From the sequence record PP526941.1: DNA of 64,000 nucleotides; one strand, written 5' to 3'. Below the pieces are notes generated by a model. The model saw only the letters and a list, made by a program, of their open reading frames with translations, was not told where the DNA came from and searched no databases. Shown piece by piece: positions 28,519 through 33,222 of this stretch. The DNA comes from Escherichia phage vB_EcoM_ECO78. The stretch's first letter is position 1, and each line of letters begins with the position of its first letter. The position numbers and the translations under genes were made by a program.

Positions 28519-28992
28519 TTATTTGAATGATTTGACGTACTGAATAGAGCCTTTACTATTCACGAAAGCGATTTTACCATTTTTATTATACATGGTAGCA
28601 GTACGCTGATAGCCATAAGTTTGTTTACCAGATTGATAACCAACTAATGCGAAATTATCTTCACCCATTTTATTCTGTTTAGCGCGAATACGTTCATGAC
28701 CGTGTGCCATAAGAACCTTAGCATCACCAGTTGAAATTGATCTACGAGTTTTTTCATCTTCAACTGTATTAACAAAGTCGTCAAATGAATCAAATTTAGC
28801 ATGGGATTTATTATACAGTTTTCCATCTACTGCATAATTATATCCCTGTACATCCATCTCAACTTCTGTACCATCATCCAATACAGCAGTGATTTTTTGA
28901 CCTTTTTTAAATTTCAAAAGATCAGTAAAAGATTCAGCAATAATTTGAGAATTAATAGCTGCTTCAGTGATAAATTCTTGATATGTTTTCAT
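28519..28992 (-). CDS. Internal-protein-like (capsid targeting sequence) protein, 157 aa
   Basis: N-terminal CTS MKTYQEFITEA typical of T4 internal proteins; SD AAGGAAA. Confidence 0.65.
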   Translation of the reverse strand: MKTYQEFITEAAINSQIIAESFTDLLKFKKGQKITAVLDDGTEVEMDVQGYNYAVDGKLYNKSHAKFDSFDDFVNTVEDEKTRRSISTGDAKVLMAHGHERIRAKQNKMGEDNFALVGYQSGKQTYGYQRTATMYNKNGKIAFVNSKGSIQYVKSFK

Positions 28993-29476: not shown

Positions 29477-30279
<803 letters not shown>

Positions 30280-30720
30280 TTAAAAGAGGCTGTTCATTAT
30301 TCGGTAAAGTGAAGGACCCATCACATATTGCCATTGAGTACGAGGAATAAGAGCAAAAGCGTCCATCTCTGGAATCATAATACCATCTTTATTTTCAAAA
30401 TAAGACTCGCAACGGCAATTTCTGAACATCTCATGCTCTACTGGAATCGTATAATAAAATAACTGTAAGTCTTTATTACTAGAATATTTAAATACACCTA
30501 GGTCTTCTAGAAGGTCTGGATTATAATTGCTAAAACCAGTCTCTTCTAAACATTCTCTTCGTGCTGCATCTAGTGTGTTTAAATCAGAATTTTCTACACG
30601 GCCCTTTGGAATATCCCAACGATGTGCCATCATTCCAGGCTTACGAGAACCAGTAACCCGACCCATAAATAAATCTTTATCTTCTGTCATAAAGATAATA
30701 CCAGCTGATAATGTTTTCAT
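30280..30720 (-). CDS. nudE: Nudix hydrolase
   Basis: Nudix box GRVENSDLNTLDAARRECLEETGF; SD AGGAAA before ATG (MKTLSAGIIF...). Confidence 0.8.
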   Translation of the reverse strand: MKTLSAGIIFMTEDKDLFMGRVTGSRKPGMMAHRWDIPKGRVENSDLNTLDAARRECLEETGFSNYNPDLLEDLGVFKYSSNKDLQLFYYTIPVEHEMFRNCRCESYFENKDGIMIPEMDAFALIPRTQWQYVMGPSLYRIMNSLF

Positions 30721-31205
30721 TTTAATTTCCTGCATTCAGTGATAAAGTTATTTAAATTTTGAGTATATTTCTTTTCATCAAAAATCTTTTGTTGTCTACG
30801 TAAACGCCATGGCATTTCAATGAACACGCACCATATTCCTGATAATATTGCTGCAGTAAAAATATTAACAAATATAGTACAAAGAGCCCAATCTCCTATT
30901 CTGTCCATTGGATTTTTTCCAAAGAAGTAAAATACGAATGATGACACAGGAAGACTGATAATATACCACAGAAGCATATTCTTGTCTGTAAACCAATCAG
31001 CGTTCGTTAACTTAGCGCGACCATTATGAATACACACGAATTTATCATCTGTTACAGTAGATGGCTTAACTGGTTGATATCCCATTCTAAACTCCCTAAT
31101 CAACAAATTTTTCATATCTTCGGAACAGCCATTCCAGTCAACTCTATCAACTGAAATGCCATCATCCCCATCATCTAAATCATACCAGCGAGTTTTTAAA
31201 ATCAT
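30717..31205 (-). CDS. Membrane protein (162 aa)
   Basis: Hydrophobic segments LLWYIISLPVSSFVFYFF and ILSGIWCVFI. Confidence 0.55.
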   Translation of the reverse strand: MILKTRWYDLDDGDDGISVDRVDWNGCSEDMKNLLIREFRMGYQPVKPSTVTDDKFVCIHNGRAKLTNADWFTDKNMLLWYIISLPVSSFVFYFFGKNPMDRIGDWALCTIFVNIFTAAILSGIWCVFIEMPWRLRRQQKIFDEKKYTQNLNNFITECRKLK

Positions 31206-31564
31206 CTAATTTTCCTGCAATCACTCACAAACTCTTTCATTGATTCATTTTCAATATAAGACATGTAGCTGTTATATTCTTTTAATTGTATTTTGTAATC
31301 CTTTTTTCTTTGCCAATTTATTTTAAAATTATCATAATGAAAATATAACATGATACCAAAGAATGAAAATGATGAAATCGCTATAGTATAATGAAGTTCA
31401 CTCCAAACTTCTATTATATTTACTGTGCCGTCGATATTTAAAATAAGACAGTCAATTAACAATCCAATAAGACTACCCGCAAGAGCTGCAGCCAACGCCA
31501 CAGCAAAAATTAAAAATGACTCAGGAAGCGAATATTTGACTTTATTTAGTTTTGGCTTTTGCAT
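31202..31564 (-). CDS. Membrane protein (120 aa)
   Basis: Two hydrophobic helices. Confidence 0.55.
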   Translation of the reverse strand: MQKPKLNKVKYSLPESFLIFAVALAAALAGSLIGLLIDCLILNIDGTVNIIEVWSELHYTIAISSFSFFGIMLYFHYDNFKINWQRKKDYKIQLKEYNSYMSYIENESMKEFVSDCRKIR

Positions 31565-31938
31565 CGTGATTCCTTAACAAATTTCATAATTTCATCAAAT
31601 TCATACGCAGCAAGTTTAAGCTGGTGTTCCTTTTTAATCTTTTTACACTGTGCTTTCCAATCACGTATGCGTTTACGATAATGTCTTCCTTGATACCAGT
31701 ATCCTACCCAATTTACAGGTACTAATAAAAATGGAACTATTAATGGAAGAATTAGCATTAACACAAGTATTTCGCCAGAATCAATATCAGTCATAACATC
31801 TAAAACACCTCCAATAATCAGTAGAATTACAAATGATATGAGTATAACAGGACCTATTAATACATCAGTAGAAATTATCTGGCGCTTTAATTCATACTTT
31901 AAGGGTTTACTTGGAAGATACATTGATGGCTTTGACAT
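31546..31938 (-). CDS. Membrane protein (about 130 aa)
   Basis: SD AAGGAA before internal ATG (MSKPSMYLP...); two TM segments. Confidence 0.5.
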   Translation of the reverse strand: MSKPSMYLPSKPLKYELKRQIISTDVLIGPVILISFVILLIIGGVLDVMTDIDSGEILVLMLILPLIVPFLLVPVNWVGYWYQGRHYRKRIRDWKAQCKKIKKEHQLKLAAYEFDEIMKFVKESRCKSQN

Positions 31939-32515
31939 ATTCTCTACATTCCTTAACAAATTTTTCTAGTAATAAATCGCTTTCAAAATTAGGATTTTCC
32001 ACGAATTTATCAAAAAGATCATCAACAATAGTTAAGATATTCTTTTTACTAAGAATACGCTTATTTTCATGCTTTGTTTCAGAATCAACTATAAGAGTAA
32101 AGAAATATTTCTTTCCCTGAAATTTTACCGTAGTATCAATATAAAATAAATTTGACTTTTGTAAATTACGTTTAAACCATGCGTCACTTAAACTATAAAT
32201 GCCAAGATAATCATAATCGTCATTTAAATAACAAACTGTCCATTCAGGAGAAATGAAATCAGTAAATTCAACATCAAAATCACATGTCAATGAATGAATT
32301 GATTCAATACTTTTAATGAGTATTCCAGGACGTATTAAAGACTTTTTACCTCTACAAAATCTTCCAGAAAGGCTTTCATCAGTTTCATATGAAGACCCCC
32401 AATAGTAATTACGTCCTTCTGCCATGCGTTTAAGAGCATTTAGTAATTGGTCTGGAACATCAACCTGTCTTTGGAACTCTTCAAACATTGAATTGAAATC
32501 ACTTTGCATTTTCAT
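31907..32515 (-). CDS. Hypothetical protein (202 aa)
   Basis: ORF. Confidence 0.55.
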   Translation of the reverse strand: MKMQSDFNSMFEEFQRQVDVPDQLLNALKRMAEGRNYYWGSSYETDESLSGRFCRGKKSLIRPGILIKSIESIHSLTCDFDVEFTDFISPEWTVCYLNDDYDYLGIYSLSDAWFKRNLQKSNLFYIDTTVKFQGKKYFFTLIVDSETKHENKRILSKKNILTIVDDLFDKFVENPNFESDLLLEKFVKECREYVKAINVSSK

Positions 32516-32536
32516 TCCTATTTACTCCAAGTAATA

Positions 32537-32550
32537 GGGGCCGAAGCCCC
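32537..32550 (-). terminator. Stem-loop GGGGC-UUCG-GCCCC (RNA hairpin, possible terminator or processing site)
   Basis: 5-bp GC stem with UUCG loop between two genes; no clear U-tail. Confidence 0.4.
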
Positions 32551-32556
32551 TTATCA

Positions 32557-33150
32557 TTATTTCAGAGAATTAATGTATTCCTGAACATCGGCAGAGGTGG
32601 TTTCAACCCCAGAAATATTACCGTTAAAGGTTTCAACTCGAGCGAGAGTATCTTCAATATCAACCTTAGTCAGTGCTGCAATTTCAACTACATCATCAGC
32701 AGTACTAATTCCAAGGGCATTTGCTGCACGAGTTTCACGGATATATTCCAATTTAACTGCAAGTTCTTGACGAGCATCATCTAACTCAACTACTTTCTTG
32801 GCGATTTCAATTCGCATTTCAGCATAACCATCAGCTTTAGTAGTCAACTGCTCAGCTGTTCGACGATATAGTAAACCGAGTTTAGCATGCATTGTTACAT
32901 CTTGACCTTCAAAAAGAAGCTTGCGAATTTCACGCTCTTTTGATTCGGCCTGCTTATTCTTTTCGACAATAAGTTCACGAATACGTTTTTCTTCATTAAT
33001 AGATTTAACAGAAGCAGTTTTTAGGTCTTTAATTTTATCAAGTAGTTTTGCTGCTGCAGCAGTATACTGTTCTTCAACAGATAGATTTTTAGCCATAGCA
33101 GAACCAAGTTTAGTGCGAATAAACTCAACAATTTTCTTCAGTGTGTTCAT
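32557..33150 (-). CDS. Coiled-coil protein (197 aa), possibly PspA/IM30-like
   Basis: Mostly helical, heptad-rich sequence; family assignment is by impression only. Confidence 0.55.
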
Positions 33151-33222
33151 AGTATTTCCTTAGGTTGATTAAGATTTAAAATCCGTGGAAGAATTATATC
33201 ATGTTATCTGAGTGATGTAAAC

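Follow-up and report, generated by a model that had tools for sequence, protein, structure and literature searches.

In the window analysed here, a 64,000-nucleotide (nt) stretch of Escherichia phage vB_EcoM_ECO78 (sequence record PP526941.1), three consecutive small genes, e.4, e.3 and e.2, were found to encode proteins of one common build, in which two hydrophobic helices are followed by a C-terminal tail ending in a short motif. Evolutionary constraint is concentrated in this tail, and the same motif is carried by the soluble product of the neighbouring gene e.5. The tail regions of the three small proteins are homologous, from which we conclude that e.2, e.3 and e.4 are paralogous, at least in the part that begins where the second helix ends. 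Our favoured explanation, held tentatively, is that they act as membrane anchors whose two ends are cytoplasmic, each protein presenting a docking tail to a shared partner, possibly the PspA-like product of e.6. T4 is among the best-studied phages, yet many of its genes, including those for predicted small membrane proteins, are without an assigned function. With the present results, three anonymous open reading frames (ORFs) become a defined and testable family with a constrained cytoplasmic tail of about 40 residues, the motif of which is kept, in the protein at the e.5 position, from Aeromonas to Escherichia phages.

The stretch from 30280 to 32560 is 97% identical to Escherichia phage JoYop, and 506 phage records match it at 90% identity or more. 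The source is a Tequatrovirus (T4-type phage), and the three small genes are its e.2, e.3 and e.4. The original prediction had pointed to three ORFs of 162, 120 and about 130 amino acids (aa) with overlapping stops and starts, for which the ORF list supplied exact coordinates (Table 1). They lie between e.5 and nudE on the same strand, and the full lengths of e.2, e.3 and e.4 are matched by PHROG 2203, 2330 and 2604, respectively. The same three positions are annotated e.4, e.3 and e.2 in the T4 reference genome (NP_049738-NP_049740), and in the older T4 record GenBank L13089 e.2, e.3 and e.4 are msp7, msp6 and msp5. According to the ORF list, the minus-strand order is e.6, e.5, e.4, e.3, e.2, nudE and lysozyme e, in which e.5 overlaps e.4 by 32 nt, e.4 overlaps e.3 by 19 nt and e.3 overlaps e.2 by 4 nt (ATGA). 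The three genes had been placed downstream of e and nudE; in the direction of transcription, they are in fact upstream (5') of both. Homologues of e.2, e.3 and e.4 occur in 500-640 phage records, with hundreds per family.

The function had been called unknown, and our searches agree, annotations of these genes going no further than 'conserved hypothetical' or 'predicted membrane protein'. For e.2-e.5 there was no match passing the threshold in NCBIfam, PADLOC or the copy of Pfam used; Pfam at E ≤ 1 returned only two sub-threshold matches of e.4, to unrelated families, and PDB sequence searches with single-sequence queries of e.2, e.5 and e.6 returned nothing. At E ≤ 1 no PADLOC model of an anti-phage defence system matched e.2-e.6. 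The PHROGs recognise the e.2-e.4 families and give no function label beyond 'membrane protein', while the precomputed Pfam families carried by homologues of e.2 (PF26896, on proteins 85-99% identical) and of e.4 (PF26873, 'Phage_T4_Y06O') merely name T4 proteins. In a T4 gene table (PMC11879866, supplement), the function and essentiality of e.2-e.6 are listed as 'Unknown', and literature searches by gene names or UniProt accessions found nothing relevant to e.2-e.4. The genes themselves are already known and catalogued, and the window phage adds another set of orthologues. As far as we found, the paralogy of e.2, e.3 and e.4, the C-terminal tail shared with e.5 across the family and the PspA/Vipp1-like fold of e.6 alongside are undescribed.

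Two or more hydrophobic helices had been expected in each protein, and Kyte-Doolittle hydropathy gave exactly two per protein. The peaks range from 1.8 to 3.0, with the second helix of e.3 weaker, aromatic-rich (mean 1.18) and the least certain of the six; the first helix of e.3 peaks at 2.56, and the 19-residue peaks of e.4 reach 2.85 and 2.99. The neighbours e.5, e.6 and nudE have no hydrophobic helices (maxima 0.57-1.05). The topology was read from composition, by Kyte-Doolittle hydropathy and the positive-inside rule. The C-terminal tails contain 9-15 Lys and Arg residues, against 0-2 in the loops and 4-5 in the short N-termini of e.3 and e.4; this distribution fits the positive-inside rule with both termini cytoplasmic and a periplasmic loop of only 7-14 residues. 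By this composition, e.2-e.4 would be inner-membrane two-helix hairpins with both ends in the cytoplasm. As to the membrane-associated function proposed originally, the two helices and the charge pattern bear out the membrane location; the suggested role in lysis timing is weighed below. The plan common to all three consists of two helices, a Trp-plus-basic juxtamembrane patch, a helix of about 25 residues and the C-terminal motif. A short basic N-terminus precedes this in e.3 and e.4, and e.2 can be described as a hairpin-plus-tail fused to an extra N-terminal domain of 76 residues.

The tails follow the consensus acidic-x-F-[IV]-x-[ED]-C-R, with FITECR in e.2, FVSDCR in e.3 and FVKECR in e.5, and FVKESRC as a variant in e.4. 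We defined e.5-e.2 as a tail-bearing set, a grouping of this analysis, in all members of which aromatic-[IV]-x-x-[C/V]-[R/K] was found no more than about 25 residues from the end, after a helix. In the six-frame translation of the whole window F[IV]x[ED]CR occurs three times, always at the C-termini of the e.2, e.3 and e.5 block, and a search of 21.6k ORF residues with a looser pattern gave four hits, of which three are tails of this cluster. BLASTP aligned e.3 and e.4 colinearly over their full lengths (E = 0.006). When the post-membrane segments of the families were compared by hhalign, e.3 and e.4 matched with a probability of 93% (E = 2.7e-7) and e.2 and e.3 with 90% (E = 1.5e-6); these runs used alignments broadened with other genera, and shallow alignments gave only about 50%. 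Between e.2 and e.4 only the 11-residue motif aligned (E = 0.08), so that e.3 forms the bridge between them. An earlier hhalign match of e.2 to e.4 was discarded as an artefact of a natural e.4::e.2 fusion (P0098) inside the e.2 alignment. By hhalign, the tail homology reaches about 40 residues upstream of the gene junction.

Two further ORFs on the minus strand (28519-28992 and 29477-29773) start with the capsid-targeting sequence of internal proteins (MKTYQEFITE...). Its core E-F-I-x-E equals the core of the e.2-e.5 tails, and its F-I-T-E codons differ from those of the e.2 tail at one of 12 positions. A link between the tail core and the capsid-targeting sequence MKTYQEFI[AT]E was nevertheless discounted, because F-[IV]-x-E is too common by a rough estimate.

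Comparison of five to seven Tequatroviruses revealed where constraint is located. The ratio of nonsynonymous to synonymous substitution rates (dN/dS) is 0.06, 0.13 and 0.17 in the C-terminal tails of e.2, e.3 and e.4, and 0.57, 0.40 and 0.80 in the respective membrane hairpins; the N-terminal domain of e.2 has a value of 0.19. For the e.2 tail, dS is 0.32 against a dN of 0.018. Column entropy over 37-91 sequences per family gave the same picture, with nearly invariant C-terminal tails and variable first helices and loops. As constraint sits in the tails and not in the hairpins, the helices behave as anchors and the cytoplasmic tail as the working part. Purifying selection, hundreds of homologues and the detection of the T4 proteins (see below) together indicate that e.2-e.4 are real genes.

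The families differ in their reach. Against T4 records, e.3 shows about 88% and e.4 91% identity (tblastn), and the DNA of e.2 is 95% identical to T4 e.2. Proteins at least 85% identical to e.2 come from Tequatrovirus alone; beyond that genus, e.2 has relatives of 195-197 aa in Dhakavirus, which end in FIEECRK. The Mosigvirus orthologue of e.3 is 38% identical and ends in NFIKECRK, and one Mosigvirus contig (L009, 4393-4492) is without e.3. Gene e.4 extends to Mosigvirus at about 52% identity, with remoter e.4-like proteins in Gapriver-, Jiaoda-, Kanagawa- and Karamvirus. Its profile matched only six clusters among 1.84 billion representative proteins, which indicates a very narrow family, and a scan of IMG/VR found six loci only. 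Besides the ATG used by T4, a TTG at 31959 could start e.4 and would give 137 aa. In phage vB_EcoM-UFV05, the in-frame e.4::e.2 fusion consists of the N-terminal 31 residues of e.4 and the C-terminal 75 of e.2; e.3 is thereby removed, yet the hairpin-plus-tail plan is kept. Some NCBI homologues of e.3 and e.4 are named 'sulfurtransferase' (P0011, P0030, P0032, P0051, P0056, P0066, P0155 and P0162). There is no NCBIfam model behind the name, which we regard as an annotation artefact; several of these homologues are filed under Salmonella, Shigella or E. coli and are probably phage genomes inside bacterial assemblies.

In the T4 reference (NC_000866; L001, 5473-5961), two indels about 80 nt apart, one a 1-nt deletion and the other a 1-nt insertion, break e.2 and leave ORFs of 102 aa and 51 aa, the latter of which still encodes the tail. 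Truncated forms, that of T4 included, are a small minority of e.2 database entries. Because e.2 is intact in the window and in most of the database, either T4 is a natural or laboratory e.2 mutant or its reference contains sequencing errors.

The motif was then followed across nine sampled genera of Straboviridae (Tequatro-, Mosig-, Gapriver-, Jiaoda-, Kanagawa-, Karam-, Biquarta-, Pseudoteven- and Bragavirus). Every one of the nine has e.6 followed by a soluble protein of 163-316 aa. These e.5-position proteins each contain exactly one [FYW][IV]xxC[RK], 3-25 residues from the C-terminus (FVKECR, FIMECR, FIAECR, FIKYCR, FVDQCR, FVEICR, FVDYCR, FIHSCK and YIMQCR). Their sequences are often unrecognisable between genera, and between several of them the tail is the sole BLASTP similarity. 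One or more two-helix small membrane proteins with related tails come next in several genera, the tails being F-[IV]-K-[EN]-V-R for the e.4 type and F-I-K-E-C-[RK] for the e.3 type, WIRSCRK and WIKEMK in Jiaodavirus, and YINSKR and YIETKRK in a Proteus phage. The copy number of the cluster differs between genera, and its genes have been gained, lost and fused. In every genus that has e.4, e.3 or e.2, with the exception of Dhakavirus e.2, e.6 sits one to three genes upstream of them.

Other C-terminal motifs and small ORFs were seen at these loci. Downstream of e.3 or e.4, two to four soluble proteins of 65-105 aa are encoded in tandem in Mosig-, Gapriver-, Kanagawa- and Karamvirus (L004 3357-4151; L012 3726-4514; L016 5210-6288; L017 5127-5601). 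All have a terminal Cys, as part of W-[VI]-[SA]-S-S-x-x-C or of a closely similar ending, and they form a second C-terminal-motif family there. In Jiaodavirus (L013 3976-4971) and Dhakavirus (L019 and L020, 2998-3234), a soluble ORF of 78 aa lies between the last tail-bearing membrane gene and nudE. A soluble Jiaodavirus ORF of 102 aa after nudE ends in LELFIAKCRAK, so the tail motif is also present on the far side of nudE.

To the product of e.6, a PspA/Vipp1-like nature within the ESCRT-III superfamily can probably be assigned on the basis of its predicted structure. A single-sequence AlphaFold2 (AF2) model had a mean predicted local distance difference test (pLDDT) score of 73, and above 80 for residues 31-130; in it, residues 2-81 and 86-145 make a long helical hairpin, and shorter helices come after it. 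When the model was searched against the PDB by Foldseek, the top ten entries were all Vipp1/PspA, aligned over the full length, with E from 5e-4 and template-modelling scores (TM-scores) of 0.50-0.56. In BFVD, it matches a 'PspA/IM30 family protein' of Acinetobacter phage ME3. A profile of nine e.6 orthologues aligned residues 1-140 to 1-142 with Vipp1/PspA chains at E values of 0.15-4.6, which are not significant alone, and Pfam PF04012 (PspA_IM30) was matched by one of the nine orthologues (E = 3.7e-4). We found 1106 phage records of e.6 at 31-99% identity, some of them annotated 'host specificity protein', and no published description of a PspA-like e.6 in T4.

In T4, the RNA of e.2-e.6 is classed as early in time-resolved omics data (PMC9697503, supplementary tables), and all five proteins were detected there, e.4 and e.5 as early, e.2 and e.6 as middle and e.3 as late. 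In a genome-wide T4 knock-down, e.2-e.6 were scored 'Not Fit' (PMC11879866, supplement). The window is consistent with early expression: a late-promoter scan found no box upstream of e.2-e.5, the only boxes in the region being the two before e, and no match to a MotA-type middle promoter was found in 30.7-33.3 kb. The early-type sigma-70 promoter-like site upstream of e.6 is the presumed source of an e.6-to-nudE transcript. Early transcript from upstream also runs into lysozyme e.

Under the favoured explanation, the hairpins would serve only as anchors, and the functional part would be the tail, which would be exposed on the cytoplasmic side of the inner membrane and dock onto a common partner. 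PspA-like e.6 is the partner that we would prefer. Small membrane proteins such as PspB/PspC and LiaI recruit proteins of the PspA family (PMC7619361), and e.2, e.3 and e.4 could recruit e.6 to the membrane as LiaI does LiaH or PspB/PspC do PspA. The phage would thus possess a system of its own that maintains or remodels the inner membrane early in infection. A broader proposal, which we regard as speculative and would not ourselves bet on, is that T-even and related phages carry their own Psp/ESCRT-III-like module, with e.6 as the polymer and e.5, e.4, e.3 and e.2 as adaptors bearing the docking peptide aromatic-[IV]-x-E-C-R. By analogy with MIM motifs and MIT domains, the peptide might plug the adaptors into e.6 or into one shared host factor. 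If this module exists, the phage would use it to hold together or reshape the host inner membrane from the first minutes of infection. Tail docking, if true, would be a conserved phage way to manage the host membrane, and the short peptide motif would help to find further members; if docking is false, e.2-e.4 remain ordinary accessory genes of a variable region.

Several observations weigh against the favoured explanation. What connects the tails with e.6 is conserved gene order alone, and e.6 is separated from e.5 by a GC-rich hairpin (32536-32551). The e.6 gene is far more conserved and widespread than e.2-e.4, and in two of the nine sampled genera it is not followed by any gene for a small membrane protein; it can therefore do without e.2-e.4. 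In the 5-kb stretches read from Dhakavirus, e.2 adjoins nudE and e, and the genes immediately upstream of it do not include e.6. That e.6 is PspA-like is itself taken from a single-sequence model of a long helical hairpin and a marginal sequence match, and long helical hairpins attract spurious fold matches. Pfam gave no match for the e.6 of the window, and hhalign of e.6 against E. coli PspA, for which the PspA sequence was approximate, gave nothing. Similarity of e.2-e.4 to PspB, PspC or LiaI was not found in Pfam or NCBIfam, tails of the e.4 type are often without Cys (FIKEVR), and the AF2 model of e.2, built from a shallow alignment, is unusable (pLDDT 50). Furthermore, there are natural phages without e.3, with a truncated e.2 or with e.4 fused to e.2, and we read the 'Not Fit' score as no measurable fitness cost, by which e.2-e.6 are dispensable in the laboratory.

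Of the alternatives, superinfection exclusion or immunity deserves attention first, although we think it unlikely. Here, the proteins would resemble Imm and alter the envelope against the DNA of later T-even or other phages, the three paralogues having different specificities. Early RNA and protein in T4, the inner-membrane hairpin build and a narrow, patchy distribution with gain and loss of copies are all as expected of exclusion proteins, and e.2-e.4 are dispensable in single laboratory infections. The membrane and periplasmic parts are the most variable, with dN/dS up to 0.8, which could reflect an arms race; however, values of 0.4-0.8 are equally expected from relaxed constraint on a mere anchor. 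The constrained parts are cytoplasmic and the tail motif is shared with a soluble protein, unlike a block acting from the periplasmic side, and e.2-e.4 matched no superinfection-immunity family that Pfam may include at E ≤ 1.

The phage protein rII counters RexAB, and a comparable role in counter-defence can be imagined for e.2-e.4, which might neutralise membrane-acting abortive-infection effectors, or sense or block depolarising toxins, with the tail binding the effector's cytoplasmic part or a host factor. The genes are early, accessory and dispensable on laboratory strains, they lie in a variable region beside internal-protein genes, nudE and other accessory genes, and their copy number differs between genera infecting different hosts. 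We nevertheless judge this role to be rather improbable. Conservation of the tail from Aeromonas to Escherichia phages points to a conserved rather than a strain-specific partner. No known anti-defence homologue was identified and no PADLOC model matched, though that library contains defence and not anti-defence proteins.

The nucleotide sequence at the gene junctions bears on another possibility, that the family has no common function. The tail would then be an inherited junction cassette, made up of the 3' end of one gene with the ribosome-binding site and start of the next and copied on duplication or swap, and the roles of the proteins would be unrelated or negligible. The DNA is indeed repeated pairwise (77% over 30 nt, and 16/16 nt), including the next Shine-Dalgarno sequence and start. 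In both copies of the longer repeat (30717-30746 and 31202-31231), the tail codons come with a Shine-Dalgarno of the form AGGAAA and with stop and start overlapping as ATGA, and the exact 16-nt repeat AAATTTGTTAAGGAAT contains the AAGGA Shine-Dalgarno of the next gene. In most cases the motif directly precedes the start codon of the following gene, and this is so even for e.5, where the gene's own stop comes 11 codons later; genes of the chain have been gained, lost and fused. However, the amino-acid motif persists while its codons vary synonymously between paralogues and genera and while the Shine-Dalgarno moves, lying on K-E (AAGGAA) in e.5 and e.4, on R-K (AGGAAA) in e.3 and e.2, and outside the motif in e.5 of Gaprivervirus. 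In Aeromonas phage avDM2, a tail-bearing gene is followed by a 67-nt gap and no overlapping gene, and the motif is kept. Additionally, the tails have a dN/dS of 0.06-0.17 with substantial dS, and their homology runs some 40 residues upstream of the junction. The shifts of the Shine-Dalgarno, the synonymous codon changes, the avDM2 gap and the excess of dS over dN in the e.2 tail indicate that the tail peptide itself is selected. A mere imprint of the Shine-Dalgarno of the next gene was therefore rejected as the sole cause of the motif, and a family without common function seems to us a fairly poor prospect. A repeat search at the locus found the junction repeats only and no tandem array, and Rfam gave no credible match.

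Finally, the lysis timing proposed in the original prediction, by which e.2-e.4 would act as holin- or antiholin-like proteins tuning lysis by the adjacent lysozyme e, is highly improbable. In its favour, the build resembles class II holins, and Tequatrovirus e.2-e.4 and Dhakavirus e.2 lie one or two genes upstream of e. Against it, the RNA is early, late boxes stand only before e, and a conserved link to the endolysin is missing, as no nudE or endolysin is annotated after e.3 or e.4 within the stretches read in Mosig-, Gapriver-, Kanagawa- and Karamvirus. Moreover, knock-downs bring no fitness cost, soluble e.5 has the tail motif too, and t, rI and rIII already explain lysis in T4.

The features of the locus are collected in Table 1. 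Genes e.5, e.4, e.3, e.2 and nudE form a chain of overlapping genes, of which e.5 is the first, and their translation is probably coupled. The likely start of nudE is the ATG at 30720 (MKTLSAG...), which overlaps the e.2 stop as ATGA (30720-30717), has AGGAAA 7 nt upstream and is the start annotated in JoYop; the T4 reference instead starts nudE at the ATG at 30735 (MQEIKMKTL...). The hairpin between e.6 and e.5 has no T run after it on the transcribed strand and is thus more like an element of RNA stability or processing than an intrinsic terminator; L13089 annotates a putative stem-loop. As a whole, the e.2-e.4 cluster adjoins internal-protein genes, nudE and other accessory genes in a variable region.

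Table 1. Features of the region from the e.6 promoter-like site to lysozyme e, in the direction of transcription (positions are those of the window; TM1 and TM2, first and second transmembrane helix).
Feature	Position (nt)	Strand	Description	Basis
Early-type sigma-70 promoter-like site	33193..33221	-	TTTACA-17-TATAAT with TG extension; upstream of e.6	
e.6 orthologue	32557..33150	-	197 aa, all-helical; directly upstream of the tail-bearing genes	ORF list
GC-rich hairpin	32536..32551	-	GGGGC-UUCG-GCCCC, perfect; between e.6 and e.5	
e.5 orthologue	31907..32515	-	202 aa, soluble; tail EKFVKECREYVKAINVSSK	ORF list
e.5 tail motif	31943-31960	-		
Exact 16-nt repeat, e.5 tail	31948-31963	-	AAATTTGTTAAGGAAT, codes K-F-V-K-E	
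e.4 orthologue	31546..31938	-	130 aa from the ATG used by T4	ORF; hydropathy; PHROG 2604 E=2e-70
e.4 N-terminus		-	MSKPSMYLPSKPLKYELKR (MSKPSM start)	
e.4 TM1	31792-31860	-	aa 27-49	
e.4 loop		-	TDIDSGE	
e.4 TM2	31711-31770	-	aa 57-76, proline-rich	
e.4 juxtamembrane stretch		-	GRHYRKRIRDWKAQC, very basic	
e.4 tail motif	31561-31581	-	tail ends KFVKESRCKSQN (F-V-K-E-S-R-C)	
Exact 16-nt repeat, e.4 tail	31569..31584	-	AAATTTGTTAAGGAAT, codes K-F-V-K-E	
e.3 orthologue	31202..31564	-	120 aa	ORF; hydropathy; PHROG 2330 E=5e-60; homologues
e.3 N-terminus		-	basic (MQKPKL)	
e.3 TM1	31439-31516	-	aa 17-42	
e.3 loop		-	acidic	
e.3 TM2	31337-31396	-	aa 57-76, weaker	
e.3 tail motif	31214-31231	-	tail ends KEFVSDCRKIR	
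e.2 orthologue	30717..31205	-	162 aa	ORF; hydropathy; PHROG 2203 'membrane protein' E=2e-78
e.2 N-terminal domain		-	aa 1-76, soluble	
e.2 TM1	30918-30977	-	aa 77-96	
e.2 TM2	30816-30890	-	aa 106-130	
e.2 tail motif	30729-30746	-	basic tail, ends NNFITECRKLK	
e.2 tail/nudE start junction module	30717..30746	-	77% direct repeat of e.3 tail/e.2 start (31202-31231)	
nudE	30280..30720 (longer ORF from 30735)	-	Nudix hydrolase; last gene of the overlapping block	
Two T4 late-promoter boxes	30257-30264, 30270-30277	-	TATAAATA, 13 nt apart; directly upstream of lysozyme e	
Lysozyme e	29755-30243	-		ORF list

Comparison with known systems separates likeness of build from likeness of sequence. Class II holins such as S21 68 share with e.2-e.4 a pair of membrane helices and a charged C-terminus, and their two ends are cytoplasmic, as is predicted for e.2-e.4. 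The phage proteins e.2-e.4 differ in being early, not required for growth and, in most of the genera examined, not adjacent to an endolysin, and in their much longer conserved tails; late expression in a lysis cassette, by which a class II holin is recognised, was not found. T4 Imm comes from the same phage group and, as e.2-e.4 would be, is a dispensable inner-membrane protein of small size and early expression. No sequence relation to it is detectable, and e.2-e.4 are set apart by their long, conserved cytoplasmic tails, which a soluble protein has in common with them. The MIM motifs bound by MIT domains in ESCRT-III systems are, like the tails described here, short helical C-terminal motifs on several different proteins near a protein belonging to the ESCRT-III superfamily. 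Their consensus is another one, and the comparison is offered as an analogy only; the C-terminus of e.6 (E-Y-I-N-S-L-K) loosely resembles the tail. In LiaI-LiaH of Bacillus and PspB/PspC-PspA of E. coli, as at this locus, small membrane proteins with cytoplasmic segments are encoded near a gene of the PspA/Vipp1 kind, for which e.6 is the candidate here. The phage proteins have no sequence similarity to LiaI or PspB/PspC, e.6 also occurs without them, and the soluble e.5 shares their tail motif. PspB and PspC have one membrane helix each, unlike the two in e.2-e.4. With e.2-e.4 of T4, the relation is one of orthology, and the genes have the same order and overlaps and are likewise flanked by e.5 on the upstream side and by nudE and e on the downstream side; the difference lies in e.2, which has 102 aa in the T4 reference, whereas that of the window is intact at 162 aa, with both helices and the tail.

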